A stretch of DNA of 64,000 nt. It comes from a phage. The notes beneath the pieces were generated by a model that was not told the DNA's origin, ran no database searches, and saw only the letters and a program-made list of their open reading frames with translations. Below are positions 29,918 to 53,677 of the stretch, piece by piece. The DNA is taken from sequence record PX930852.1; one strand, written 5' to 3'. Both the position numbers and the translations under genes were made by a program. Position 1 is the stretch's first letter. The number at the start of each line of letters is the position of its first letter.

Positions 29918-30113
29918 ATACTTTAAAGCTTTTTAAAAGCTATTAAATAATCTTTTAAGAATTTTAAAGTATCTGTATAGTTAAACTGTTAAGTAACCTT
30001 TTAAGTAAAAACCCACTTCGCAAAGATTAACACCTTGTCAAGTGCATTGTCAACTTGCTTTTTATAATTTTTTGCAGTAATGTATGAGGTTAATGATTTT
30101 AGAGGGAGTAAAA

Positions 30114-32813: not shown

Positions 32814-32874
32814 TTAGTATTGACAAGGTGCTCATGGAAGAGTACCTTATACTGTATCTTATATAGGAGGGCTT

Positions 32875-33084
32875 ATGAGCCATCGTGGAAGAACCCATGC
32901 AGCGATGATGAAAGGTGCTTCAAAGGAGACTATCAAAAATCGTAAGCAGAAGTTGTTTGAGAGAATGAACAGGTTAATTGACAATTCATCTCTTTCAGGT
33001 TCTGAGAAGGTTTTCTTGAAAGGTAATCTGAAAAGCATTGCACAAGAACTTATTGACATTGAGTATTGGAGACATCAAAAATGA
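32875..33084 (+). CDS. Hypothetical protein
   Basis: ORF with strong RBS (TAGGAGGG). Confidence 0.4.
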   Translation: MSHRGRTHAAMMKGASKETIKNRKQKLFERMNRLIDNSSLSGSEKVFLKGNLKSIAQELIDIEYWRHQK

Positions 33085-33299
33085 CACTTGCAGACGTTAT
33101 TCAGCAACTTCACGACAACTGCTATACTCCAGAGTTGATTCAGGAGATGTGTATTGTAGTGATGCCTAGCAAGTTCGTAAAAGCCTTTAACAGTGACACT
33201 TTAAGGTCTGCACACATTCTTATTGTTGAAGGTAAGATTGCAAAAGACCGTACTGGAGTACTCAAAGGTGAGCGTATTGATATTCTGGAGTTGCTATGA
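33081..33299 (+). CDS. Hypothetical protein
   Basis: ATGA start/stop overlap with the upstream gene. Confidence 0.4.
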   Translation: MTLADVIQQLHDNCYTPELIQEMCIVVMPSKFVKAFNSDTLRSAHILIVEGKIAKDRTGVLKGERIDILELL

Positions 33300-33565
33300 A
33301 GAAAATGTACAGTCTCTGGGGAAGTATTATGTGGAAAGCAGTAATTGCGCTTGGTGTTGTTTTTCTATCTGGCTGCAACCCTTCTTATGAAGATAAAAAT
33401 GCTTCTTACAGTCTCCCACCAGAGATGCAAGATTGCAGAGTATACAAGTTACATGGTGATGCTATAAGCAGAGATATTGTTGTTGTCAGATGTCCAAACT
33501 CCCAAACAACAACATCTTATAGCTATGGCAAAAATGGTCAATCACACACTACGGTTATTGAGTGA
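33296..33565 (+). CDS. Predicted lipoprotein
   Basis: Signal peptide with lipobox VVFLSGC. Confidence 0.5.
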   Translation: MKKMYSLWGSIMWKAVIALGVVFLSGCNPSYEDKNASYSLPPEMQDCRVYKLHGDAISRDIVVVRCPNSQTTTSYSYGKNGQSHTTVIE

Positions 33566-33575
33566 GGGTTTCACG

Positions 33576-33782
33576 ATGGAAGTCCTAGTAAACTATATCT
33601 ATTGTTATGATGTTGTTCACTCTACTACAACGGTAGCTCAACGTAACCCAATCGTCCCACGAGAAGGTGAGTTGGTTCGCATTGATGGTTGGACTTACAC
33701 TGTGGAAAGCATCATTCATAAGTTTGATGTTGCTGGTGATGTTCAAGTTATTGACGTAGAAATTGGTGGTAAGAGAAAATGA
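33576..33782 (+). CDS. Hypothetical protein
   Basis: Start set at internal ATG 33576 preceded by GAGGG. Confidence 0.35.
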   Translation: MEVLVNYIYCYDVVHSTTTVAQRNPIVPREGELVRIDGWTYTVESIIHKFDVAGDVQVIDVEIGGKRK

Positions 33783-34132
33783 AATCTAAGCAAACAATGG
33801 CAGATGCAATCTTCACAGTACACAGTTTCGAAAGGTTGCGCATCAAAGATGCAAAGGATACCCCAAAATGCGTTGTACATTTTATTAAAAGGCGTAGTAA
33901 CATGTCCTATATGAAATCTGACAAAGGCAATAGCACAAATGAATAAAGAAGACAAGCATAAAAATGCTGTATGAACTCCTGATGGAAAGGTTCAATCCTT
34001 CATTCTGACAGTTGGTGGAAAACCATTTCGTTGTCACTGCGGAGCGAACTGTTTTCATAAACCAGATAAAAATGACTTAGAGCTTTACGCATGTAATGCT
34101 TGCAACACTTGGTATCACTCAGAGGATTGATT

Positions 34133-34657
34133 ATGATTGACAATAGGCGCAGAAATATAATCATCAAAAACTTCCGCGAAGTGTCTCAAAATTTAAGGTT
34201 AGATGATGTCAGACTTAGGAAATCTTGGTATGACATAAAGGTATTAGAATATTCTAAAAATCAGCCAATTAAGTTATCTATCTTAGAACATTGGTATACA
34301 AACTTTGCAACACCTGAAAATCATAATAAATTATACAAAAACTATGTAGATATTTGTAAAAAGTTTGGTGTAGCAATAGTCGACGACAGTATTGGATTGC
34401 TTTATGACCTGTACACAAGGTTCTCTGAATATGCTTTTAATGTTCAGTTCAAGAACTACTTAAAGTATGATGATGGTTCATTAAAGTTGTACAACTATGG
34501 TTATGGAAAACTAGCCTGCAAACAAGATGATGGTTCTTTTATAGACTTCTACACAGGGGTTTTTGTGTACTTACCTGAACAGTGTATGTCACTATCTGGG
34601 TTAGCAGTCTCACAATTTGGTATCTTTATTCCAGTAAAATCACACATGCTAAGGTAA
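34133..34657 (+). CDS. Hypothetical protein
   Basis: Start set at ATG 34133 after AGAGGA RBS. Confidence 0.35.
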   Translation: MIDNRRRNIIIKNFREVSQNLRLDDVRLRKSWYDIKVLEYSKNQPIKLSILEHWYTNFATPENHNKLYKNYVDICKKFGVAIVDDSIGLLYDLYTRFSEYAFNVQFKNYLKYDDGSLKLYNYGYGKLACKQDDGSFIDFYTGVFVYLPEQCMSLSGLAVSQFGIFIPVKSHMLR

Positions 34658-34662
34658 TTTGA

Positions 34663-35763
34663 ATGACAATTCTGTACAAACAAAATAAAGACGGTTCCTT
34701 CAACGTCTGGTCATGCGTTGCTGTAGGTGACAAAGTTATTACAACCTACGGTAAAGAAAATGGCAAGATGATGTTTGAAGAGTATACAGCAGAGCCTAAA
34801 AACATCGGTAAAAAGAATGAGCGTAACGCTGAACAGCAAGCCCTCTTTGAAGTTGCTGCTAAGTATAAAAAGCAAGTTGACCGCAAAGGTTATGCTTACA
34901 CAAAAGAGTCTGCACAGAATACTGAGAAGGTAGGTGTACAGCTTGCTCATGATGCTGCAAAGGTTAGTCATGCAAAGTATCTGAAGTTCCCTGCTGATGC
35001 TCAACCAAAACTTGATGGTGTCCGTTGTAGAATTTCAAGAGATGCTGATGCAGTCAGTTTCACAGCTTATTCTCGTGAGAATACTGTTTACAACGTTCCA
35101 ACAGAACTAATCCCAGATTTGCTTTTGTTGCTTAAATTACATCCGCAAGTTGAAGACTTTGACGGAGAGATTTATGCTCATGGTTGGGACTTAGAAGATA
35201 TTGTATCTATGATTAAGAATGCTGACAATCCAGACCGTCACCTTCTTAAATTCTACTGGTATGATATCTGTGACAATTCAAAATCTTGGCCTGAGCGTCG
35301 TGAAGTTATTGATAACTCACCTATTGTTGAGCTTGGGGATACCTGTAGAGTTGTTCCTGTACAGACTATCCGTGTAAATTCTTGGGAAGAGTTTGATGAA
35401 GCTCATGATAAGTGGGTTGAAGCTAAGTTTGAAGGTGCAATGTACCGTTCAATCTCTGAAGACTCCTTCTATGAGTGTTGTCACCGTTCATACTTCTTGA
35501 TTAAGCACAAGAAGATGCACACTGAAGAGTTTAAAGTGACTGGTGTAAAGACCGATAAGCGTGGTCATGGTAAGTTCGTTGTAGAGACTCTTCCTAACGT
35601 CTTTGTAGATGTTTCATGGAAAACTACACACGAGAAGAAACAGTATCTTGCTGAACATCCTGAAGAGTTTATCGGGAAACCTTTAACTGTTCAGTTCCAG
35701 AAGATGACTCGTAAAGGTTCTTTACAGTTTCCTGTAGGGCTAGTTATTAGGGATTATGAGTAA
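34663..35763 (+). CDS. ATP-dependent DNA ligase
   Basis: Adenylation motif I PKLDGVRC (KxDGxR), FDGEIYA (III), EGAMYRS (IV), LIKHKKM (V). Confidence 0.7.
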   Translation: MTILYKQNKDGSFNVWSCVAVGDKVITTYGKENGKMMFEEYTAEPKNIGKKNERNAEQQALFEVAAKYKKQVDRKGYAYTKESAQNTEKVGVQLAHDAAKVSHAKYLKFPADAQPKLDGVRCRISRDADAVSFTAYSRENTVYNVPTELIPDLLLLLKLHPQVEDFDGEIYAHGWDLEDIVSMIKNADNPDRHLLKFYWYDICDNSKSWPERREVIDNSPIVELGDTCRVVPVQTIRVNSWEEFDEAHDKWVEAKFEGAMYRSISEDSFYECCHRSYFLIKHKKMHTEEFKVTGVKTDKRGHGKFVVETLPNVFVDVSWKTTHEKKQYLAEHPEEFIGKPLTVQFQKMTRKGSLQFPVGLVIRDYE

Positions 35764-35919
35764 ACTATGTTCAGTACAGTCATTCTATTTATACTGGTTG
35801 TCTTTGTATTGTCATACGTTGCAAGTAAGCTTTTGGACACATCTTTTGCAATGGGTGTCTTGTTTACAATCTTTTGTTTCGTGACGCATATAGCTATCAG
35901 AACTTTTTTATAAAAGTTG

Positions 35920-35947
35920 TTGACATAGGAAATTTGGTGAGTATACT
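35920..35947 (+). promoter_or_regulatory. Sigma70-type promoter (TTGACA-N16-TATACT)
   Basis: Consensus -35 at 35920-35925 and near-consensus -10 at 35942-35947. Confidence 0.5.
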
Positions 35948-35974
35948 GAGCATCATAAACCAACGGGTACTCAC

Positions 35975-36290
35975 CAGCATCACTTAAGAGTCTTTGAAAA
36001 GGGTTTTTAAGTGATGTAATGCGTGGCTCGGTGCAGTGAAGTATGGTGGGGTAGGGTATAATATGGTGCGGTAATGTATGGGTAGTTAGTCTCAGCTACA
36101 TTAAAATGAGACTTACCTTTTTAAAAGGTCTTTGGAGAGGGTCTTTTAATAAGGTCTGGTGTAGTAGGGTTGGGCATGGTACGGTCCGGTGTGGTGTGGC
36201 ACGGTATGGGTGGATGGTAGTATCCACGTTAAAAATCTACCAAGTTTCTAAAGAGTCTTCTGTTGAGGGTTCTTTACAAACAACTTAACA
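35975..36290. repeat. Repeat-dense non-coding island A: G-rich GGT-periodic arrays, conserved hairpin and direct-repeat element
   Basis: Hairpin AGTCTCAGCTACATTAAAATGAGACT at 36088-36113; element TTAAAAGGTCTTTGGAGAGGGTCTTTTAA at 36117-36154; GGTNN-periodic tracts at 36020-36085 and 36155-36225. Confidence 0.6.
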
Positions 36291-36299
36291 ATCAACTAA

Positions 36300-36905
<606 letters not shown>

Positions 36906-36907
36906 TT

Positions 36908-37348
36908 ATGAATACAAAAGCATTAGCAGCAAAGTTTAGTTACGGTGACACTGTATCACATTCTGAGATGGACACCTTCTTAGGTATTGTGAAGCCAACT
37001 TATCAAGGTGACATTGTTAAGTACGAAGATGAAATGAAGGCTTATGCACTTACACGTCTAAACCGACTTGAGAAGTTTATTGAAAAGCTTCTTAAAGAAG
37101 AGAAGATTTATCTGGTTGCTTCAATGGGTGTTGGTTATCGTGTGGTTGAACCTAAGCATCAAGCAACTATTGCAAAACGTAAAATGTCTGGTAAGATTGG
37201 TCGTGCTTTAAAGCAAGCCACTCAAGCGATTGAGAATGTGAATACTATGGCACTTAGTCATCAAGAACGTTCACGACTGATTGAACAGCAAAACCATTTA
37301 GCTGCTATGAAAGCTAACATTAACAAGCAACGTAGAAAACCTTTCTAA
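36908..37348 (+). CDS. Hypothetical protein (second gene of repeat-flanked cassette)
   Basis: 146-aa ORF with helical basic C-terminus. Confidence 0.4.
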   Translation: MNTKALAAKFSYGDTVSHSEMDTFLGIVKPTYQGDIVKYEDEMKAYALTRLNRLEKFIEKLLKEEKIYLVASMGVGYRVVEPKHQATIAKRKMSGKIGRALKQATQAIENVNTMALSHQERSRLIEQQNHLAAMKANINKQRRKPF

Positions 37349-37360
37349 GTTGACTAGGTA

Positions 37361-37383
37361 GCCTCTTCGGAGGCTCCTTTTTA
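37361..37383 (+). terminator. Rho-independent terminator (GCCTC-TTCG-GAGGC plus T-run)
   Basis: Stem-loop followed by TCCTTTTT directly after the 36908..37348 stop. Confidence 0.55.
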
Positions 37384-37790
37384 AAAGGTCTTTAAGAGGG
37401 TCTTTTAATGAGGTACGGCGCGGTTAGGTAAGGTCTGGTAGGGTAGGGTGAGGTTTGGTAAAGTGCGGGTAGTTAATCGGAGCTACATAAAAATTCGATT
37501 ACATCACTTAAGAGTCTTTAAATTATAGTCGATAGAGTATCTCATAGGGTTTTTAAGTGAGGTGTGGTAAAGCGCGGTTAGGTATGGCGCGGTCAGGTCA
37601 GGTGAGGTTCGGTGCGGGTAGTTAGTCTCAGCTACATTAAAATGAGACTTACCTTTTTAAAAGGTCTTTAAGAGGGTCTTTTAATAAGGTATTGTATGGT
37701 GTAGTTTGGTTAGGTATGGTTGGGTGTGGTAAGGTAGGGTATGGAAGGATGGCAGTAGCCTTATAAAAAATCTGCCAAATAAGCTATAAA
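37377..37790. repeat. Repeat-dense non-coding island B: two further copies of the island-A unit
   Basis: ~75 bp near-identical to island A at 37615-37690 (hairpin at 37624-37649); variant hairpin at 37475-37500; G-rich GGT-periodic arrays at 37410-37470, 37560-37620, 37690-37760. Confidence 0.6.
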
Positions 37791-37795
37791 ATCTG

Positions 37796-37830
37796 TTGAC
37801 AAGTCAGGTGTTATAGCTTATTTTTATACT
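37796..37830 (+). promoter_or_regulatory. Candidate promoter (TTGACA at 37796-37801 with A/T-rich -10 candidates)
   Basis: Consensus -35 hexamer; -10 either TATTTT (17-bp spacer) or TATACT (23-bp spacer), so ambiguous. Confidence 0.3.
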
Positions 37831-37868
37831 CAATGTAATACAAAATTTAATATAACTTTGAGGTCATT

Positions 37869-38252
37869 ATGAAAAAGGTTTTATTAGCTGCTGCAATGGT
37901 TATGGCAATGAATTTACCAGTTAATGCAACAGAACTTCCAAATGTGGACTTATCAGGTGTTCCAGAAGACACTTGTCAGATTGTTAAAGGTGTTGCTCTA
38001 TCTAAAGGTGAGCTACTTAAACCAATCTCTGAAGAGTCTTTGACAGAGATGACTGATAAGGTAACTGACTATCAATATCGTGTTCTTGCAGAGTATTTCC
38101 TGCAATCTGCAAATATTAAAGATAAACACCATGACGATATTGATGTACAAACTATGCTCAACCACCGTATCCAGTTTAAAGAAGATTTGATGCAAAAAGC
38201 TATGTATGGTGTTGAGTATTTCTTAGAAAACAGAAGCTGCACAGGTATTTGA
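37869..38252 (+). CDS. Secreted/periplasmic hypothetical protein
   Basis: N-terminal signal peptide MKKVLLAAAMVMAMNLPVNA. Confidence 0.45.
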   Translation: MKKVLLAAAMVMAMNLPVNATELPNVDLSGVPEDTCQIVKGVALSKGELLKPISEESLTEMTDKVTDYQYRVLAEYFLQSANIKDKHHDDIDVQTMLNHRIQFKEDLMQKAMYGVEYFLENRSCTGI

Positions 38253-38253
38253 T

Positions 38254-38466
38254 ATGGCTCTTAAAAAGTTACATCCCAGAAGCGGTTATGGTAAGATAAT
38301 TGACGATACAGACGGATTTACAGTCTTTACAGTCATCTGTCAAGATGATTCACAGATTGAAAAGGCTCTTGACGATTATCTTAACGATGAACGTGAAAAG
38401 GTTAGGGCTACAAACATAGATTCATTGATTGACACTTCACGCAAACGGAAGAAGAAAGATGAATGA
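38254..38466 (+). CDS. Hypothetical protein
   Basis: 70-aa ORF. Confidence 0.35.
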   Translation: MALKKLHPRSGYGKIIDDTDGFTVFTVICQDDSQIEKALDDYLNDEREKVRATNIDSLIDTSRKRKKKDE

Positions 38467-38758
38467 GATTTTTGACCCTTATGCTCCACAAGATGATTGG
38501 GAGGCTGATAGAGAGGCTGAAATGGAGAGTTATATTTGTCCAATGGATGTAGATGAAATGAGAGATTTCGTTGCACATCGTTTTAAGAGAGAGATTAAAT
38601 CCAGAGGTCTTTCTCAAGAGCAAGTTGCTAAAATTTGTGGTATCTCTCAGGCTCGTGTATCCAACATAATCCATCTCACTGGTAACGTCTCCCTTGAGTA
38701 TATGTTGGAAGTATGTGAAAAATTTGGTGTTAATTTTAATTTAAGGTTGGCAGATTAA
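38459..38758 (+). CDS. Helix-turn-helix (XRE-like) DNA-binding protein
   Basis: LSQEQVAKICGISQARVSNI helix-turn-helix segment; start set at ATG 38459. Confidence 0.5.
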   Translation: MNEIFDPYAPQDDWEADREAEMESYICPMDVDEMRDFVAHRFKREIKSRGLSQEQVAKICGISQARVSNIIHLTGNVSLEYMLEVCEKFGVNFNLRLAD

Positions 38759-38759
38759 T

Positions 38760-39119
38760 ATGAAACGTGAAAACATTATCCACTCTGAAAACTTCGCATT
38801 AGGCTTTTATGGCGTACCCACTCACCTTGAAAAGTATTATGGTGTGAAGATTCTCTCCAATCTCATTATGGCTTACAAAGATGGTAAGATTAAGCATACT
38901 GAGAAGAAACGTGTCATGGGCTATATGGCTGTAGGTTCAGCAATCTCGAACATTAAGCTGGAAACAACTAGCAGTCAGCTTGTGAAAGACCACTTCATCA
39001 AAGAGCTTTACCAGAATCTTGATGGTGTAGATGTTCAGGCTGTTTGGTTGGATGTTGATGGTCATAACTACACAAGTTTTGTTTTTAAAAACGACGACAT
39101 TAAGTGCTTGTTCCCATAA
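38760..39119 (+). CDS. Hypothetical protein
   Basis: 119-aa ORF. Confidence 0.35.
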   Translation: MKRENIIHSENFALGFYGVPTHLEKYYGVKILSNLIMAYKDGKIKHTEKKRVMGYMAVGSAISNIKLETTSSQLVKDHFIKELYQNLDGVDVQAVWLDVDGHNYTSFVFKNDDIKCLFP

Positions 39120-39132
39120 TAGGTGATTGATT

Positions 39133-39648
39133 ATGATTGATATCTACTTACAAGATGCTCATGCAGATTTCCTTAAAGAGATGCTTAAAAAGTTTATGGC
39201 TTCACATTATGAGAATGAAGCATCTTTTAAAATAGTTACATGTGGCGACGAAGCTGGTTTTGTTGAGATTGAACATGAAGGTACTGGAAAGACTGTTTGT
39301 AAGCTACCTGATAGCATGTTCTCTAAAACGTTCTTAACAAAGACTAGTATAAATGTTAAGCTTGTGCCTCAGATTGAAACATACTCTGGTACAGATTACC
39401 CTAAAGGTTTCAAGTCACTAATGAAGCACTTCTTAGATGACTTTGTGGGTAATCTTCTGAGGGAGGTAACAGAAAGCCGTACAATATTAACTGTAGAGAA
39501 TATAGGGAACACTATCAGGGTTACTTCTGACCGATATTCTATGAGCCTCTTCGACTTTGTACCTAAGAACTTTGATGGTATTCTGGATGAAGAAGATGAC
39601 TGTGTAGACTTTATATTGGTTCTTGAACCAGTTTTTGAGGTTAAATAG
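39133..39648 (+). CDS. Hypothetical protein
   Basis: Start set at ATG 39133 after AGGTGA RBS. Confidence 0.35.
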   Translation: MIDIYLQDAHADFLKEMLKKFMASHYENEASFKIVTCGDEAGFVEIEHEGTGKTVCKLPDSMFSKTFLTKTSINVKLVPQIETYSGTDYPKGFKSLMKHFLDDFVGNLLREVTESRTILTVENIGNTIRVTSDRYSMSLFDFVPKNFDGILDEEDDCVDFILVLEPVFEVK

Positions 39649-39909
39649 ATGAAAATTGAACACTGCTATGAGTCTGATGGGGCACCTATCCGATGTCCAC
39701 ATTGTGGGTGTACAGACTTACAAGGTGAAGTTCATGTGATTGTTAATGGTCATATAGCTGAAGAAAGTACTACATGTGTTGGTTGTGGTGAGCATCTATC
39801 ATTCTGGGCTTATGGTTCATACCAACCTACACCACACCTAATATACCATAGCAATAAAGCCGTGAAGAATGTTATCAACTGGTTCATTAAGAAAGGATTT
39901 ACAAAATGA
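39649..39909 (+). CDS. Small zinc-ribbon protein
   Basis: CPHCGC...CVGCG cysteine pairs. Confidence 0.4.
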   Translation: MKIEHCYESDGAPIRCPHCGCTDLQGEVHVIVNGHIAEESTTCVGCGEHLSFWAYGSYQPTPHLIYHSNKAVKNVINWFIKKGFTK

Positions 39910-40451
39910 TTAAATTAATCTTTGCAAGTGGTGAAAATGGGGAGTTTGGTACTCCAACTGGTATGCCGTGGCCTCGACATAAACAGGACATGCAAGAGTT
40001 TAAGAGACTCACTAAAAATAACTTAGTAGTCATGGGTAATGAGACTTTTAAGACTCTGGGTAGTAAACCTCTACCAGAACGTGCAAACCTAATCTTAACA
40101 AATTCTGTACCATACTTAGGTATAGATTTTGGCAAAGATGGTGTAATGTATGCTAAGGCCAGCAAAGAATCCTTTGGAGCATTTTTGAAGTATCTTGATA
40201 GCTCTATTGATGAAGATGTCTTTGTAATTGGTGGTGCAGGTGTCCTTGTCAATGCTTTACCGTATGCTGGTGTGGTGTTCCATACAGTCTTCCATAAAGT
40301 TACTGAAGAGGCTACTGTGCATTTACCTTTTGAAAACTTCTTTGAGAAGCTGTATGATAACCGTGTATTTACAAAGGTACAGTCAAAACCATCAGAGGAT
40401 GGTAAAGCAACTTTTGAAATTTATGTTCCACAAGTAAAAGGACACTTTTGA
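39906..40451 (+). CDS. folA: Dihydrofolate reductase
   Basis: N-terminal IFASGENGEFG..GMPW pattern typical of DHFR; immediately upstream of thymidylate synthase. Confidence 0.65.
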   Translation: MIKLIFASGENGEFGTPTGMPWPRHKQDMQEFKRLTKNNLVVMGNETFKTLGSKPLPERANLILTNSVPYLGIDFGKDGVMYAKASKESFGAFLKYLDSSIDEDVFVIGGAGVLVNALPYAGVVFHTVFHKVTEEATVHLPFENFFEKLYDNRVFTKVQSKPSEDGKATFEIYVPQVKGHF

Positions 40452-40452
40452 T

Positions 40453-41352
40453 ATGTCACAAGCAGATTCAAGTTACAAAAATATCCTGAACCATGTTTTA
40501 TCCGTTGGTGAACTGCGTACTACACGAACTGGAGATGTTATCTCTGCATTTGCTCCACCTCAGTTTCGTTTTGATATGCGAACTGGTTTCCCGCTCTTAA
40601 CATCTAAACAGGTGTTTACACGGCAAGTCATTGGGGAAGCTTTATGGTTCCTGAATGGTGAGAATAAACTTAGTGAACTCCGTTATCGCACTTGGGGTGA
40701 AAATGATGGAGAACGTTGGACTATCTGGTCAGATGATTTTAAACGTTGGTTAAGCTCTAACTATTCTTCTGAGCAAGACTGGTTAGAAGATGCAGGTGGG
40801 AGAATCTACGGGGTTCAGTGGAGAAACTTCGAAGGTCATAATGGTTGTGTTGTAGACCAGTTAGAGGCCTTAGTAACGAAGATGAAGGGTGATATCACAG
40901 ACCGTTACATGCTTGTTAATGCTTGGAATGCAGCAGATATTGCAGCAAACTCAATGGCTTTAGCACCTTGTCATGTTCTGTTTCAGATTTATATCACTAA
41001 TGAAGGTGAAGTGGATTTGCAATGGTATCAGCGTTCTGTAGACACCTTTTTAGGACTTCCATTCAACATTGCGTCTTATGGCTTCATCTTAGAAGTTCTT
41101 TGCAAGATGACTGGATACACTCCACGGTACTTGATAGGTGTCTTTGGAGATACTCAGATTTATCAGAACCATATGAAGCAGGTTTATGAACTGATAAACA
41201 ATGAAGAGTTCCATGCACCTACTTTTGAGATTGGTGTACAGCTTAACACTCTAAGTGATTTAAAACACCTTACTGCAAGTGATTTTATTGGCGGCATTAA
41301 CAACTACCAACATGCAGGGAAGATTGAAGCACCTCTGTCAGTAGGTAAGTAA
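40453..41352 (+). CDS. thyA: Thymidylate synthase
   Basis: Catalytic-Cys block ALAPCHVLFQ(I)Y and other ThyA conserved segments. Confidence 0.85.
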   Translation: MSQADSSYKNILNHVLSVGELRTTRTGDVISAFAPPQFRFDMRTGFPLLTSKQVFTRQVIGEALWFLNGENKLSELRYRTWGENDGERWTIWSDDFKRWLSSNYSSEQDWLEDAGGRIYGVQWRNFEGHNGCVVDQLEALVTKMKGDITDRYMLVNAWNAADIAANSMALAPCHVLFQIYITNEGEVDLQWYQRSVDTFLGLPFNIASYGFILEVLCKMTGYTPRYLIGVFGDTQIYQNHMKQVYELINNEEFHAPTFEIGVQLNTLSDLKHLTASDFIGGINNYQHAGKIEAPLSVGK

Positions 41353-41354
41353 AA

Positions 41355-41385
41355 CAAAAAAGGCTCCCGTAAAAAGGAGCCTTAA
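41355..41385. terminator. Bidirectional rho-independent terminator between convergent gene blocks
   Basis: GGCTCC-CGTAAAAA-GGAGCC hairpin flanked by A-run upstream and T-rich sequence downstream. Confidence 0.55.
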
Positions 41386-41388
41386 ACT

Positions 41389-41760
41389 TTATTTTTCAGT
41401 ATTCTTTGTGTTCTTCTCAGTAATAGCTTGCAAGGCTGATACTGATTGAGCCAGATTGTTCACACTGTCAGAGAATTTATCAAGAGTTTTGGTAAGTTTT
41501 GCGTTTTCACCCTTAACATTCTCTAACTGAACTTTCTGGTTCTCCATCCCTAGCTGAATCAGTCTCATGTCAGACTGTAAATCACGAATAGCTGAATAGT
41601 TACTTTTGGAATAATTATCTAGCTGCTGTAACTTTGTTGTGACAGACACTTCTTGCTTACCACTTGAAACTTGCATAGTGGTATACATCCCAATAACACT
41701 AAAAATACCAACTACAATTGCACCAATATTGTTTTTAAAAGCTTCCTCTAGCCACTTCAT
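41389..41760 (-). CDS. Membrane-anchored coiled-coil protein (possible lysis accessory or spanin-like protein)
   Basis: N-terminal TM IGAIVVGIFSVIGMY followed by helical, charged sequence. Confidence 0.3.
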   Translation of the reverse strand: MKWLEEAFKNNIGAIVVGIFSVIGMYTTMQVSSGKQEVSVTTKLQQLDNYSKSNYSAIRDLQSDMRLIQLGMENQKVQLENVKGENAKLTKTLDKFSDSVNNLAQSVSALQAITEKNTKNTEK

Positions 41761-41955
41761 TTATTTCTCCCCCTTAAAAGCTTTTTCTAAGTTATCTACG
41801 AACTCATCATCAATAGGCGTGTCTGTTTTACTCGCAAGGTATCTTGCAAGCTTAAAGAACACTTTCTCAATCATGTATTCACTTAGAAGGGATAAAATGA
41901 GTTTCCAGAAGAAGCTACCTAGATTTTTTAGAAGAATTGCTAGGATTGTAGGCAT
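41761..41955 (-). CDS. Small membrane protein (holin-like, tentative)
   Basis: 64 aa, one hydrophobic segment then charged C-terminus; follows the tail fibre genes. Confidence 0.3.
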   Translation of the reverse strand: MPTILAILLKNLGSFFWKLILSLLSEYMIEKVFFKLARYLASKTDTPIDDEFVDNLEKAFKGEK

Positions 41956-42034: not shown

Positions 42035-44419
42035 TTAAGCAGTTCTTACCCAAGCCATTAACTTGTAGAACTGGTTAGTAACACTGAATGCTGAACCAGA
42101 ACCTGTACCACCAGTGTTACCACTAACTGTATGAGTGTGAGCACCGATACCTACAGAGTGGGTGTGAGCACCAGTGTTACTTGTAGTACCAGACCATGTG
42201 TGTGTATGGTTACCAGTTGTGTTAGTGTTAGGGAATTTGTTATCTTTTCTATCAAGCCAGTCAAGAGTTCTTGTCTTGCTGTTGCTAACAGTTGTGTAAC
42301 CATACTGAGCATCACCACCATTAACCAATAGCAGACCTAAGTGGTGAGCATGGTTACCCGCAGCACTTGTTGTACCACTTACAGTGTGGGTGTGACCACC
42401 AGTACTATTAGTGCTCTTCGTACCATAATCAAAAGATGAAGTGGTAGCAGAGAAGCTGTGAGTGTGTGATGGTAAGTTACCAACAGCTAATGTTACAGAA
42501 TCTGAACCACCAGTTGTAGCAACATCTGAACCGTTAGCTGCTGCGATTCTGATAGTTCTACCAACACCATTGTTCAGGTACGTCCAAGTTAACCCAGGCA
42601 ACGCTGTGTTAGGGTCAACATTACTGTTAAACCACGTTACAATGCCTACTGGATAGATTTTATTAAGGTCTGTAGAGTCACTAATTGCTGTTGCAATTTT
42701 CTGGTCAGTTTCAGCTTTAGTGTATGCACCAATATCTGAAGGGGTTGGTTTAAAATCAGTTGTATAAAGTTGTGCTTCTCCGGCATAGTCACCATTTTTG
42801 TCATAGGCATAGGTGAATGTTGCCAGACCGTTTGAACCGTATACAAAAGAGATACCCCTTGCATGTGCAGCAGACTTACTAGAGTGAGCAACATGAATTG
42901 CCAACTCTTTCAGACCACTAGTCACACTGTTGTTTCTGACAAAACCTGAATATCCAAGATTAAATGCTGAAGGGTTTTCAAGGTTATCTACAGAGACAGT
43001 CATTAAGGATTGATTTAATAACTGAGTTTTAACAAAATATCTAGCATCTAAGTTAGACCAATCAGAAGGTTGTACTTGACCAGTAATTGTTAGATTCTTA
43101 TTAGCCTTAATCGCTGAGGACATAAGAGTAATTTGAGTCCCAGAGTAGCTGTTGTTTAATGCTACATCAGTAGAATTTGTGCCACCCACACCTACCCACC
43201 ACCTAGATACATTCTGGGTATCAACACCACGGATATATTGTGGCTGTCCCTGTGTTAAGTTTCTTAATACTACGCCTTCATTATTTGATACAATAGTTTG
43301 CACATTCACAAATGTGTTAGCAACATTAAGTTTAGGTAGGTTACTCAAAGTTGCTGCTGGGATGTATCTAGAGTCAATGTTAGCCCAATCTGAAGGTTGA
43401 ACTTGACCAGTGATTCTGAAGTCCTTGTTTACTGCGACATGACCATTGTCAAGTCTAAGATAAGAACCATACACATAGTTGCTGATGAATACAGCAGGTG
43501 TATTATCACCATTTCCTACATACCACTTACCAGAACCATCATTAGCTTCGGCTTTAACGTATAGTGCAGCATTTGCTACAGTATTTTTCAACCTTAAAGC
43601 AGCACTGTCACTAATAATAAGTAGGTTTCTGCTAAACGTGTTAGTGCCAGTGAAATTGTTATTAGCAGCTAACTGTGCAAATCTCTGATTAGCAACTGTC
43701 TGTGTGAAGTATCTAGCATCTAAGTTAGAGAAGTCAGAAGGTTGGACTTGACCAGTGATTCTAAGTGTTTTACTGATAGCAGCAACACTAGACAGATTCA
43801 CTTCACAACCTGTCTTGTAGTTGTGGATAATAACATCATCATTCCCTGAACCATTACCTACATACCACCTATTAGCACCAGTGCTGTCCTGACCTCTAAT
43901 ATACAACGGTGAGTTCTCAGAAGAATTTTTTAGTCTAATAGCTTCGCCATTTGCTTGAATAACCTGTTGGAAGGTAAAGATGTTATTTGCAGCTAATCTT
44001 GAGTATCTTGCATCATTCTCTTCATTAGTTCTCATCCCAAGCTCATTAGGACTTGGCTTATTCAGGGTATGATAAACAGTTGCCGACCTTGAAGCATCTG
44101 CAATAGTTAGCTTAAGACCGTTTGCGTTAATTTTAAAAGTCTTTAAAACATCCCCAATATTAATCTCAGAAGAGCCTGTAGGGTCAAATACTGTCTTACC
44201 ACCATAAAGTAACTTAACAATACCTAAATCACCCGTCATGGTACTACCAATAATCTGAACAAATCTCTCAAGCTTAAAAGATGCTAAGAAATCTTGATAG
44301 GTCATTCGACGGTCTTCATCACCCAGCATTTCAGGTCTCTTTTTAACTCTGACATGAAGAAGGTCATCTGAACGGATTGTATCGATTGAGTTTAATTCAC
44401 TCAACTTGTAATCTGCCAT
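42035..44419 (-). CDS. Tail fibre protein with three internal repeats and His-rich C-terminal tip
   Basis: Triplicated ITGQVQPSD(W/F)(S/A)N(L/I)D(A/S)RY units; C-terminal GxHxH repeats (HTHS, HTHT, NHAHH); terminal WVRTA. Confidence 0.65.
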   Translation of the reverse strand: MADYKLSELNSIDTIRSDDLLHVRVKKRPEMLGDEDRRMTYQDFLASFKLERFVQIIGSTMTGDLGIVKLLYGGKTVFDPTGSSEINIGDVLKTFKINANGLKLTIADASRSATVYHTLNKPSPNELGMRTNEENDARYSRLAANNIFTFQQVIQANGEAIRLKNSSENSPLYIRGQDSTGANRWYVGNGSGNDDVIIHNYKTGCEVNLSSVAAISKTLRITGQVQPSDFSNLDARYFTQTVANQRFAQLAANNNFTGTNTFSRNLLIISDSAALRLKNTVANAALYVKAEANDGSGKWYVGNGDNTPAVFISNYVYGSYLRLDNGHVAVNKDFRITGQVQPSDWANIDSRYIPAATLSNLPKLNVANTFVNVQTIVSNNEGVVLRNLTQGQPQYIRGVDTQNVSRWWVGVGGTNSTDVALNNSYSGTQITLMSSAIKANKNLTITGQVQPSDWSNLDARYFVKTQLLNQSLMTVSVDNLENPSAFNLGYSGFVRNNSVTSGLKELAIHVAHSSKSAAHARGISFVYGSNGLATFTYAYDKNGDYAGEAQLYTTDFKPTPSDIGAYTKAETDQKIATAISDSTDLNKIYPVGIVTWFNSNVDPNTALPGLTWTYLNNGVGRTIRIAAANGSDVATTGGSDSVTLAVGNLPSHTHSFSATTSSFDYGTKSTNSTGGHTHTVSGTTSAAGNHAHHLGLLLVNGGDAQYGYTTVSNSKTRTLDWLDRKDNKFPNTNTTGNHTHTWSGTTSNTGAHTHSVGIGAHTHTVSGNTGGTGSGSAFSVTNQFYKLMAWVRTA

Positions 44420-44439
44420 TATAAATTTTCCTCTTAAAA

Positions 44440-44455
44440 GGGGCTATAAAGCCCC
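44440..44455 (-). promoter_or_regulatory. Conserved GGGGCT-loop-AGCCCC stem-loop between the two tail fibre genes
   Basis: Same stem as hairpins at 6031-6048 and 10804-10819, each just upstream of a gene start on the minus strand. Confidence 0.4.
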
Positions 44456-44465
44456 TGTAAAGAAA

Positions 44466-45653
44466 TTAAGCTGTTCTCTGCCATACATACAGCACGAATG
44501 ATGGCTGCTCAATGTTGAAAGCTTGTCCACCACCAACACTATTAGTGTTTCCACTATGTGTATGCTCAGAAGAAGAAACTGCCACAGTACCATTGTGTGT
44601 GTGTGAACCAATACCAACTGTATGGCTATGAGCACCAATACCCACCGTATGATTATGGTTACCAGTTGTGTTAGTGGTAACGCTAAAAGAGTGGGTGTGC
44701 GAACCAGCGACTTCACAGACAGCATCTGCTGAGTACCATGATTGGTCATTTCTTGTAGACCAAACCATTGCAGGTCTCTCCGATAGGCCACCACCCGCTT
44801 CATAGGTCAATCTGTGGTTGTGAGCACCAGCAGCACTTGTTGACCCACTACCAACGTGATTGTGGTTACCAGTTGTGTTAGTAGTCTTTGTTCCATAGTC
44901 AAAAGAGTTGGTAGTCTTAGTCCCATAGTCAAAAGCTGAAATTGAAACAGTTGCATTATGAGTGTGACCACCACCACTAAGAGATACAGAGTGTGAGTGT
45001 TGAGGCATGTTATTAACTGACAAAGTGACAGTCGAAGCACCAAATACAGAACCTGCTGGCCTTGTATCAGAGTCATAGCCAACCAATGCCCTACCTTTTG
45101 AAACCAACTCCCAAGTACCTCCACAAATTAAGTATGTAGAAGGGTTTGCAGAGTTCATAGAAAGATGGATAGTACCTACTGGATAAGAAGCCTGAACAGC
45201 CTTGTACAAGTTATTTACTGCTCTTGCTGTAGCATACTTATCTGCATCTTCATTATACAGGTTAGATGTTGTCCAGTTCTGAACATTACTTAAACCAACC
45301 TGTGCCTTAGTTGTATTGTGTGGGTTACTCTTGTCCTTGATATGTTGCTGAACAAGGTTATTAACCTCTTCTGAAGACATAATCTGTAGATTTGCTCTTG
45401 CCTCAGCTACATTAACAATATCTGATAAGTTATTTGCAGCGACTAACTGAAGAGCATTAATAACGTTATCTAAACCAATTTGTGTTTTAGTCACACCATG
45501 AGGGTTATTTCTTAGGCTTGAGTGTGGAGCAAGTAATTGCTCAAGAGTACATCTCTTATCCTCAATACCCTGCTTAAGATGGAAGATATCACTAAGGTCA
45601 ATTGGTAAGGCTGCTTGAGGCAAGGCACTAATTTGAATTTCACCTACCGCCAT
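44466..45653 (-). CDS. Tail fibre protein with His-rich (GxHxH) C-terminal tip
   Basis: Multiple HTH/NHNH/HSH repeats and terminal WQRTA homologous to the C-terminus of the 794-aa fibre. Confidence 0.65.
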   Translation of the reverse strand: MAVGEIQISALPQAALPIDLSDIFHLKQGIEDKRCTLEQLLAPHSSLRNNPHGVTKTQIGLDNVINALQLVAANNLSDIVNVAEARANLQIMSSEEVNNLVQQHIKDKSNPHNTTKAQVGLSNVQNWTTSNLYNEDADKYATARAVNNLYKAVQASYPVGTIHLSMNSANPSTYLICGGTWELVSKGRALVGYDSDTRPAGSVFGASTVTLSVNNMPQHSHSVSLSGGGHTHNATVSISAFDYGTKTTNSFDYGTKTTNTTGNHNHVGSGSTSAAGAHNHRLTYEAGGGLSERPAMVWSTRNDQSWYSADAVCEVAGSHTHSFSVTTNTTGNHNHTVGIGAHSHTVGIGSHTHNGTVAVSSSEHTHSGNTNSVGGGQAFNIEQPSFVLYVWQRTA

Positions 45654-45655
45654 TA

Positions 45656-53677
<8,022 letters not shown>

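Follow-up and report, generated by a model that had tools for sequence, protein, structure and literature searches.

The stretch analysed here, hereafter the window, is 64,000 nucleotides of sequence record PX930852.1 and is part of the genome of an E. coli myophage of Felixounavirus (Felix O1-like) type. The region under study matches Escherichia phage EF202P1 at 98.2% identity and 100% coverage by megablast, and nearly all of the 239 records matched in this search are Felixounavirus-type phages of Escherichia, Salmonella and Shigella. Two tandem open reading frames lie on the minus strand, one encoding a protein of 395 amino acids (STF, 44466–45653) and the other a protein of 794 amino acids (LTF, 42035–44419), with tail-fibre PHROG matches to phrog_2097 (E 6.5e-138) and phrog_4277 (E 0), respectively. 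We regard it as very probable that these are both fibres of the baseplate, the short (STF) and the long (LTF), a judgement that covers the whole explanation set out below, with its trimer, metal and specificity steps.

Gene order agrees with that of Escherichia phage JohannRWettstein (Bas63) from bas63_0023 to bas63_0029. In both phages, the genes for baseplate wedge 2, wedge 1 and the LTF platform are followed by STF, LTF, two small open reading frames and a convergent thymidylate synthase, and DNA identity to Bas63 is 91–99% outside the variable cassettes. The 100-residue protein encoded directly upstream of STF equals bas63_0025 in length and position, with 93–95% DNA identity; its Bas63 counterpart, gp25, is the LTF-platform trimer, described as a homologue of T4 gp9 (PMC12609058). 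The genes and their domains, in window coordinates, are as follows.

45656..45958, minus strand: 100-aa protein directly upstream of STF, orthologue of Bas63 gp25 (phrog_4141, E 2.8e-62)
44466..45653, minus strand: STF gene, 395 aa, orthologue of Bas63 gp26 (bas63_0026, by synteny) and VpaE1 gp74
45204..45653, minus strand: STF N-terminal region, aa 1–150, 97% identical in Bas63 and Phi87
45006..45203, minus strand: STF collar domain, aa 151–216 (Pfam Gp10_C PF21939, E 1.1e-18, above cut-off)
44814..45005, minus strand: STF descending needle strands, aa 217–280, with HxH at 219, 230, 264 and 278
44706..44813, minus strand: STF head segment, aa 281–316, predicted receptor-contacting distal loop, from its variability, with the role inferred from T4 and Bas63
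44529..44705, minus strand: STF ascending needle strands, aa 317–375, with HxH at 319, 333, 342, 351 and 364
44469..44528, minus strand: STF C-terminal strand, aa 376–395, ending ...QAFNIEQPSFVLYVWQRTA, which aligns with both the LTF end and ...NIAFNYIVRLA of T4 gp37
42035..44419, minus strand: LTF gene, 794 aa, orthologue of Bas63 gp27 (bas63_0027, by synteny) and VpaE1 gp75
44012..44419, minus strand: LTF N-terminal region and first degenerate shaft unit, aa 1–136, 96% identical in Bas63, Phi87 and P54
43034..44011, minus strand: LTF shaft, three tandem repeats of ~110 aa (aa 137–238, 239–352 and 353–462; Pfam gp37_trimer PF20744 three times, E 9.8e-70)
42680..43033, minus strand: LTF last degenerate shaft domain, aa 463–580 (Pfam gp37_C, E 0.0022, below cut-off)
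42473..42679, minus strand: LTF collar domain, aa 581–649, by hhalign to the STF collar
42341..42472, minus strand: LTF descending needle strands, aa 650–693, with HxH at 652, 676 and 690 (HAHH)
42215..42340, minus strand: LTF head segment, aa 694–735, predicted receptor-contacting loop, from its variability among relatives
42095..42214, minus strand: LTF ascending needle strands, aa 736–775, with HxH at 738, 752 and 761
42038..42094, minus strand: LTF C-terminal strand, aa 776–794, ending ...SAFSVTNQFYKLMAWVRTA, which aligns with the ends of STF and T4 gp37

By tblastn, STF is 99.7% identical to its counterpart in EF202P1 and 69.6% identical to that in Bas63. Its N-terminal region, which binds the baseplate in the Bas63 homologue as seen by cryo-EM (PMC12609058), contains two copies of a helix-turn motif, NPHxxTKxQ(I/V)GLxNVxN, at residues 50–66 and 110–126, and this part matches fibres of unrelated phages and the short tail fiber gp92 of PDB 9zd7. 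The collar matches structures of the T4 gp10 C-terminal domain (2FKK, 5HX2) and is the best-predicted part of an AF2 monomer model (pLDDT 83–87). The model as a whole has low confidence (mean pLDDT 64, pTM 0.28, head below 50), and a Foldseek search of the PDB with this poor model gave no match below E 0.3. Beyond the collar, the descending strands carry a duplicated FDYGTKTTN motif and align to the T4 gp37 tip structure 2XGF, their HxH motifs pairing with the T4 His motifs at 883, 915 and 929, with one additional motif; on the ascending side, the spacing of 14, 9 and 9 agrees with that of T4 residues 966, 980, 989 and 998, again with one motif to spare. The C-terminal strand is 85–90% conserved in relatives, and Y389, W391 and R393 are invariant across 43 homologues.

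LTF, 98.7% identical to the EF202P1 protein, likewise begins with a region that binds the baseplate in the Bas63 homologue (PMC12609058). The first-pass annotation had described three internal repeats of about 90 residues; the repeats are real by BLASTP (31–46% pairwise identity, E 1e-19 to 1e-28) and by Pfam, but their period is about 110 residues, the same as that given by the spacings of 327 and 345 nucleotides in DNA repeat family D2. Each repeat ends in ITGQVQPSD(W/F)xN(L/I)DxRY. Two degenerate units (residues 41–136 and 463–575), which match one another at E 1e-4, flank the three clear ones, so that LTF has five units in all, as does its Bas63 homologue, in which five beta-helix domains are reported (PMC12609058). 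A profile of the shaft repeats matches a 65-residue stretch of the crystallised T7 gp17 fragment 4A0T/4A0U (E 1.5e-6), with the core motif xLxLxxxxxxxxxYIxxxxxxxxxxWYxGxG present in both. T7 gp17 has a single copy of this domain, whereas LTF has three clear and two degenerate units and, unlike T7 gp17, an HxH needle. Within the last degenerate domain, at about residue 532, a tblastn alignment to T4 gp37 residues 757–993 begins. The collar that follows is 99–100% identical in Bas63, Phi87 and P54 and scores 21.7 bits for Pfam Gp10_C, under the cut-off of 27; the C-terminal ending is the same in all 120 closest homologues.

All nine HxH motifs of STF fall within residues 219–366 and all six of LTF within residues 652–763, compared with a mean of 1.39 (maximum 6) for STF and 0.49 (maximum 4) for LTF in 5,000 shuffles of each protein. 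The full GxHxH form is present in 7 of the 9 STF motifs and 5 of the 6 LTF motifs. Nine motifs are found in 51 of 74 STF homologues and six in all 120 of the closest LTF homologues; the count is a family trait. Two adjacent fibres with His-rich tips and W-x-RTA ends had been proposed earlier, and the reading frames, their coordinates and every quoted string are indeed present: HTHTVSG at LTF 761–767, GNHNHTVGIGAHSHTVGIGSHTHNG at STF 331–355, ITGQVQPSDWSNLDARYF at LTF 445–462, and the termini MAWVRTA and YVWQRTA. The C-terminal regions of the two proteins, 210–240 residues long, are 35% identical (BLASTP, E 6e-23), and hhalign pairs STF 152–395 with LTF 584–794 at a probability of 99.85% (E 1.6e-30), making them homologous to the final residue.

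The likeness of these His-x-His repeats to the tip of the T4 long fibre, also suggested in the first-pass annotation, is borne out as homology to the iron-binding gp37 needle (crystal structure PDB 2XGF, residues 785–1026). Single-sequence phmmer searches match this tip at E 7.3e-26 for STF and 5.6e-19 for LTF, profile searches reach 3.2e-26 and 2e-20, and a tblastn query with T4 gp37 matches the STF and LTF genes alone within the 64-kb window. The homology extends over the collar, the FDYGTK motif, the GxHxH boxes and the terminal strand. A collar of the gp10/gp11/gp12/gp37 type precedes the needle in both fibres, recognised through Pfam in STF and through hhalign to STF in LTF; the T4-like HxH spacing of 14/14/9/9 is common to both; and the W-x-RTA terminus of both aligns with the ...AFNYIVRLA end of T4 gp37. 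In T4, as in the fibres of the window, a variable head lies between two His blocks, with descending and ascending motifs numbering 4+5 in STF, 3+3 in LTF and 3+4 in T4.

As opposed to T4, where a single tip of this kind closes a long fibre made of four proteins (gp34–37) and the short fibre is made of another protein, gp12, the window has a gp37-like tip on two single-protein fibres, the short one included. Moreover, T4 gp37 binds OmpC or LPS, whereas Felixounavirus is reported to depend on LPS only. Assembly of T4 gp37 depends on the chaperones gp38 and gp57A, a requirement that is specific to T4 and not part of the definition of the fold. A tblastn search of the 64-kb window, itself part of the genome, gave no gp38 homologue (best E 0.22), and assembly may thus differ from that of T4.

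On this basis, each fibre would be a homotrimer whose N terminus docks on the baseplate and whose C-terminal part forms a tip of the T4 gp37 type, with a collar, a six-stranded needle and a small distal head. Each chain would descend the needle, form the head and ascend again. In the T4 tip, Fe is held octahedrally by six histidines, each of three chains contributing one HxH. By analogy, the HxH motifs of the three chains would come together along the axis to bind metal ions (iron in T4), with one site per motif giving nine predicted sites in STF and six in LTF, compared with seven in T4; the metal binding we infer from homology in the motifs, and the trimer geometry of the two fibres is likewise predicted. 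A chain that doubles back, its C terminus returning to the collar, has been reported by cryo-EM for the 70%-identical Bas63 homologues (PMC12609058). With a chain that returns in this way, the W-x-RTA terminus would belong to the mature fibre as a structural strand rather than being a cleaved chaperone.

Paired fibres that both end in gp37-like HxH tips are already published, for VpaE1 in 2015 (PMC4690856) and for Bas63 in 2025 (PMC12609058). The Bas63 cryo-EM study (Sci Adv 2025) describes gp26 as STF and gp27 as LTF and assigns to both of them a head, an HxH needle and a collar like that of gp37 (PMC12609058). Bas63 has the same domain plan as the window, from the N-terminal baseplate-binding domain to a return strand ending in WQRTA or WVRTA; N termini, collars and C termini are 85–100% identical, and its LTF likewise has six HxH motifs and five shaft units. 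The differences lie in the STF motifs (nine in the window, four descending and five ascending, against seven in Bas63), in the heads (10–28% identical), in the LTF shaft repeats (45–54%) and in an extra LTF histidine, which follows the motif in the window (HAHH 690–693) and precedes it in Bas63 (HHNH 692–695). For VpaE1 (Viruses 2015), virion mass spectrometry found both fibres, and a C-terminal likeness to the gp37 adhesin was noted (PMC4690856). Its gp74 and gp75 are the orthologous pair, megablast covering 84% of the region at 88.4% identity; the tip and shaft cassettes of VpaE1 differ from those of the window, and VpaE1 is limited to the truncated LPS core of E. coli B type.

Among 48 homologues, the head is the most variable stretch of STF (identity 0.30–0.35, entropy 2.3–2.9 bits), at 19–28% identity to Bas63, Phi87 and Sf18 compared with 76–100% in the flanks. 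The LTF head is 10–19% identical to the same three phages, compared with 68–100% for collar and terminus; DNA identity to Bas63 drops to 36% in the bin 42209–42358, and the head is conserved (87–99%) solely among the 120 closest LTFs. Comparison of the STF head (~281–316) with the LTF head (~694–735) gave no meaningful similarity. What is common to the two fibres is the scaffold of collar, His-box needle strands and terminal strand, not the predicted receptor-contacting part. The duplicated tip of the first-pass annotation is therefore right for the scaffold but not for the head: because the heads are unrelated between the fibres and swapped among relatives, the tip is not duplicated as regards receptor specificity. 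This specificity would sit in the loop that forms the head, flanked by the His blocks, and related phages appear to exchange this loop as a cassette. Given heads that differ completely between the fibres and are exchanged in this manner, the virion would carry two different adhesins on one scaffold. Felixounaviruses depend on LPS and not on protein receptors (PMC8594841; bioRxiv 10.64898/2026.04.02.716166), and LPS structures are most likely the targets of both fibres.

Many phage fibres and spikes bear C-terminal autoproteolytic chaperone domains, and the W-x-RTA region could in principle be such an intramolecular chaperone, cleaved off after trimerisation. This is extremely improbable, since the last HxH leaves only about 20–30 residues before the C terminus, both termini align with that of T4 gp37, whose translated gene ends at the same ...IVRLA, and the chain goes back to the collar in the Bas63 model (PMC12609058). 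A Pfam search at E ≤ 0.01 found no Peptidase_S74 or other chaperone domain in STF or LTF, and autoproteolysis, which the first-pass annotation had named as a result that would overturn its reading, finds no foothold next to a terminus that aligns with the retained C terminus of T4 gp37. Nor are the two adjoining homologous tips, with short DNA repeats encoding their His boxes (families D1 and D3–D5, 61–76% identical), at all likely to reflect a programmed switch, in which the virion shows one tip or the other as with the Gin and Cin invertible segments of Mu and P1. The two reading frames are complete, lie on one strand and have separate start codons and N-terminal domains; inverted repeats reach at most 23 nucleotides and are 78–85% complementary, which is the chance level; the longest DNA similarity between the genes is 81 nucleotides at 75%; and homologues of both fibres occur together in virions (PMC4690856; PMC12609058). 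An invertible fibre locus is effectively refuted, with no segments in opposite orientation and only short, imperfect inverted repeats at the fibre genes.

Two fibres could also be redundant or divide the labour, either both binding the same LPS core or LTF alone recognising the host while the STF tip acts mainly as a latch, docked on the tail sheath and let go when triggered. This would suit the reports that Felixounaviruses depend on LPS only (PMC8594841; bioRxiv 10.64898/2026.04.02.716166) and the description of the short-fibre role as unexplored (PMC8594841), and in Bas63 the retracted STF head lies between sheath domains (PMC12609058). We nevertheless consider it improbable, because the sequences of the two heads are unrelated and no part of STF varies more among relatives than its head (19–35% identity). 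Such variability suggests diversification driven by the host, not contact with the sheath, which is highly conserved within the genus. The earlier suggestion of dual or switchable specificity divides in two: switching is unsupported, as the tandem genes are complete, whereas dual specificity is plausible, and reasonable because homologues of both fibres are found together on virions (PMC4690856; PMC12609058).

Variation is not confined to the heads. Compared with phage P54, STF and the LTF N terminus, collar and head are 88–100% identical in protein, whereas the LTF shaft block is just 36–49% identical in protein and 39–76% in DNA, with abrupt boundaries, a pattern that resembles the exchange of cassettes under diversifying selection. 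It is conceivable, if rather unlikely, that the shaft, with its beta-helix repeats (~42660–44010, residues ~137–587), is a second module for host interaction or defence evasion, beyond a passive spacer. Should it bind surface glycans laterally, or be a target of anti-phage defences, each long fibre would have two independent specificity determinants, and the shaft, the LTF head and the STF head would together make three per virion.

Globally, the two-fibre locus carries little weight as a discovery, and its value lies in annotation and in guidance for engineering. The scaffold of collar, His-box strands and WxRTA strand would be separable from the specificity cassettes, the head loops at STF 281–316 and LTF 694–735, and these loops would be the segments to swap for retargeting Felix O1-like phages in diagnostics or therapy.

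The two tail-fibre genes lie in tandem on the minus strand, 46 nt apart, between genes for baseplate proteins and a terminator:

46818–48287, baseplate wedge 2 (Baseplate_J)
45958–46815, wedge 1
45656–45958, LTF-platform protein, 100 aa
44466–45653, minus strand, short tail fibre (STF), 395 aa
42035–44419, minus strand, long tail fibre (LTF), 794 aa
41389–41955, minus strand, two small open reading frames (ORFs), 64 aa (41761–41955) and 123 aa (41389–41760)
41360–41383, strong bidirectional terminator, between the small ORFs and the convergent thymidylate synthase gene
40453–41352, plus strand, thymidylate synthase, within a GC-skew block and convergent with the fibre operon
39906–40451, plus strand, dihydrofolate reductase, within the same block

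Across its full length the region shares 98.2% identity with Escherichia phage EF202P1. It matches 239 phage records, nearly all from Felixounavirus-type phages of Escherichia, Salmonella and Shigella. The gene order around the fibre genes, including both wedges and the platform protein, is exactly that of Escherichia phage JohannRWettstein (Bas63). Given this identity and gene order, STF and LTF are orthologues of Bas63 gp26 and gp27 and of VpaE1 gp74 and gp75. Two ORFs overlapping the STF gene (44444–44803 and 44807–45124) were treated as spurious, alternative-frame readings. The STF N-terminal part contains two copies of the motif NPHxxTKxQ(I/V)GLxNVxN, 60 residues apart (residues 50–66 and 110–126; window ~45276–45506). 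Very distant phages (Bacillus SPR, Klebsiella and Ralstonia jumbo phages) have fibre or structural proteins that match this double-motif stretch alone, as does PDB 9zd7 (‘short tail fiber gp92’); the stretch is probably the ‘triple alpha-helix and turn’ element of Bas63.

All relatives examined have the small ORFs downstream of LTF. In the 123-aa protein, a hydrophobic N-terminal segment precedes a region weakly matching coiled-coil families, and the protein carries a ‘holin’ annotation in phages Sf18 and P54; in PHROGs, both ORFs (phrog_4038 and phrog_402) are entered as of unknown function. If it is a holin gene, its place directly behind those for the distal fibres would parallel T4, in which gene t follows g37–g38. 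The terminator is of the intrinsic type, a hairpin (AAGGCTCCC...GGGAGCCTT) with a run of T after it on the minus strand, and separates the end of the fibre operon (minus strand) from the convergent thymidylate synthase gene (plus strand). The GC skew changes from negative to positive at ~30 kb and back at ~42 kb (block ~30000–41400), and in the examined part of this block (~37.9–41.4 kb) the genes run on the plus strand; the structural genes around the block otherwise lie on the minus strand. The 64-kb window has no tRNA genes.

Both fibres contain strongly clustered and enriched His-x-His (HxH) motifs, and the strings quoted in the first-pass annotation are all found in the two proteins. STF has nine motifs (residues 219, 230, 264, 278, 319, 333, 342, 351 and 364) and LTF six (652, 676, 690, 738, 752 and 761), with the full GxHxH form in 7 of 9 and 5 of 6, respectively; these counts were never reached in 5,000 shuffles per protein, which gave chance means of 1.39 for STF and 0.49 for LTF. 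The His-rich C-terminal region, which had been described as common to both fibres, is indeed homologous to the final residue, with 35% identity between the C-terminal parts by BLASTP (E = 6e-23) and a probability of 99.85% in a profile–profile comparison of STF 152–395 with LTF 584–794 (E = 1.6e-30).

The proposed likeness to the T4 long-tail-fibre tip also holds, as both STF (E = 7.3e-26) and LTF (E = 5.6e-19) match the sequence of the gp37 receptor-binding tip crystal structure (2XGF), with similar results from profile searches. The STF collar additionally matches structures of the T4 gp10 C-terminal domain and Pfam Gp10_C. In a three-way alignment of STF, LTF and T4 gp37 785–1026, all three have equivalent elements: a YP[VI]G... 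collar, the first His box and then the FDYGTK motif, two further descending boxes with a 14-residue spacing, a stretch that is not conserved, ascending boxes spaced at 14, 9 and 9, and a terminal strand, AF...(W)xR(T/L)A. Compared with the seven motifs of T4, STF has two more (230 and 364), and the final ascending motif is missing from LTF. The W-x-RTA ending, singled out in the first-pass annotation, lines up with the terminal strand of gp37, which ends in ...AFNYIVRLA, with the translated T4 gene stopping at the same place; W-x-RTA is therefore the normal C-terminal strand of the family. Removal of the C-terminal regions by autoproteolysis had been raised as an alternative, but Pfam detects neither Peptidase_S74 nor any other chaperone domain in STF or LTF, which argues against it. 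NCBIfam has no family matching either fibre, and tblastn with T4 gp34, gp35, gp36, gp38 and holin T finds nothing in the window.

Structure prediction, suggested earlier for trimeric tips, was run on the full-length STF monomer (AF2, 43-sequence alignment) and gave a mean pLDDT of 64 and a pTM of 0.28, with the head below 50. Such low confidence is expected because the fibre would be an intertwined trimer. Foldseek of the model against the PDB returned nothing below E = 0.3, the only matches being weak ones to the gp10 collar, and the model is neither for nor against the sequence-based assignment.

The two-fibre gp37-type tip arrangement is correct and already known. For both VpaE1 fibre proteins, homology of the C-terminal region to the T4 gp37 adhesin was described in 2015, and the 2025 Bas63 structure has a collar, HxH needle and head in both STF and LTF, with seven and six di-histidine motifs, respectively, and five beta-helix domains in LTF; its authors noted that the tips vary, as do the beta-helix repeats. 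Differences from Bas63 are quantitative only: nine rather than seven HxH motifs in STF, and different head cassettes. Because nine motifs is the commonest STF state (51 of 74 homologues), the Bas63 STF is the less typical member.

The three internal LTF repeats reported in the first-pass annotation are real, but their period is ~110 aa rather than ~90 aa. Units 137–238, 239–352 and 353–462 match pairwise with E values of 1e-19 to 1e-28, Pfam gp37_trimer matches LTF three times (E = 1e-69), the repeats recur in the DNA at intervals of 327 and 345 nt, and degenerate units (41–136 and 463–575) flank the three clear ones. The Bas63 LTF shaft is reported to resemble gp34 by structure, a likeness invisible at the BLAST level here. 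The stretch that matches T7 gp17 falls within the first half of the crystallised gp17 fragment. We take this half to be the pyramid (shaft) domain, not the distal tip, and do not claim from the match that the repeats of the shaft act as tip domains binding a receptor. For the LTF of Salmonella phage Si3 (KY626162, 2501–4844), the annotation gives two ORFs (453 and 311 aa) that part directly after the third shaft repeat, and the collar, the needle, the head and the terminal WVRTA all belong to the second. Either this fibre truly has two genes, or the split stems from a frameshift or a sequencing error.

The shaft varies separately from the tip. Compared with Escherichia phage vB_EcoM_P54 (P54, PV390658), STF and the LTF N-terminus, collar and head are 88–100% identical in protein, whereas the LTF shaft block (residues ~137–587, 42660–44010) is 36–49% identical in protein and 39–76% in DNA. 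The block boundaries are abrupt, with DNA identity beside it of 91–99% in most bins and 89% across the final 300 nt of the LTF gene. At the sequence level, this divergence with sharp boundaries beside a near-identical tip indicates that the shaft is exchanged as a cassette independently of the tip, and the abruptness of the boundaries favours recombinational exchange over gradual drift. To the Bas63 authors, shaft variability was unexpected; as possible explanations they named recognition of the host and evasion of defences. P54 itself (88 kb) is placed by GenBank in Straboviridae, Tequatrovirus; it is probably misclassified, since both the fibre locus and the order of the genes are of the Felixounavirus type.

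Within the tip, variability centres on the head, the distal segment between the two His blocks. Among 48 homologues, STF residues 281–320, exactly between the last descending and first ascending His boxes, are by far the most variable (identity 0.30–0.35, entropy 2.3–2.9 bits), against identities of 0.85–0.99 in the N-terminus, collar and C-terminal strand. Domain-by-domain alignment with related phages, a check that had been proposed earlier, gives the same pattern: the heads of both fibres are 10–28% identical to those of Bas63, UAB_Phi87 and Sf18, and the collars and C-termini 68–100% (83–100% to the Felixounaviruses Bas63 and UAB_Phi87, 68–85% to the Mooglevirus Sf18). DNA identity to Bas63, 91–99% in most flanking bins, falls sharply at 44459–45058 (STF distal needle and head) and to 36% at 42209–42358 (LTF head). 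The two heads, STF 281–316 and LTF 694–735, are essentially unrelated to each other. The duplicated tip of the first-pass annotation thus holds for the needle and collar scaffold but not for the heads, and the duplicated, conserved parts appear to be structural rather than the receptor-contacting tip proper. This variability fits an older T-even model, reportedly described by Tetart and colleagues in J Mol Biol in 1998, in which adhesin segments are exchanged by recombination through the conserved DNA of the His boxes. The LTF of Shigella phage Sf18 (1801–4179) retains the collar, the first two His boxes, the last two and a KLMAWVRTA terminus, with a ~65-aa His-free insert in place of the mid-needle and head and four HxH motifs remaining; head modules of very different kinds are therefore compatible with the tip scaffold.

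The homology and the variability pattern are shown by the sequences themselves; the metal binding, trimer geometry and receptors of the two fibres we infer from their likeness to T4 gp37 and from the cryo-EM model of Bas63 (PMC12609058). Each would be a trimer docking on the baseplate by its N-terminus; in Bas63, STF binds wedge 2 and LTF the platform trimer (PMC12609058). Distally, the three chains would build a beta needle, six-stranded because each chain runs down and returns, with metal ions along the axis coordinated by HxH pairs from the three chains (one predicted site per motif, nine in STF and six in LTF) and a small apical head touching the receptor. As Felixounaviruses depend on LPS and not on protein receptors (PMC8594841), both heads probably recognise LPS structures.

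Of the dual or switchable specificity proposed earlier, nothing speaks for the switchable form: both genes are complete, on one strand and equipped with their own N-terminal domains. Programmed switching was rejected, the only inverted repeats being at most 23 nt long, 78–85% complementary and at chance level; the longest DNA similarity between the STF and LTF tips is 81 nt at 75%. Virions carry homologues of the two fibres together, as seen for VpaE1 by mass spectrometry (PMC4690856) and for Bas63 by cryo-EM (PMC12609058), from which the phage would be expected to display two adhesins at once.
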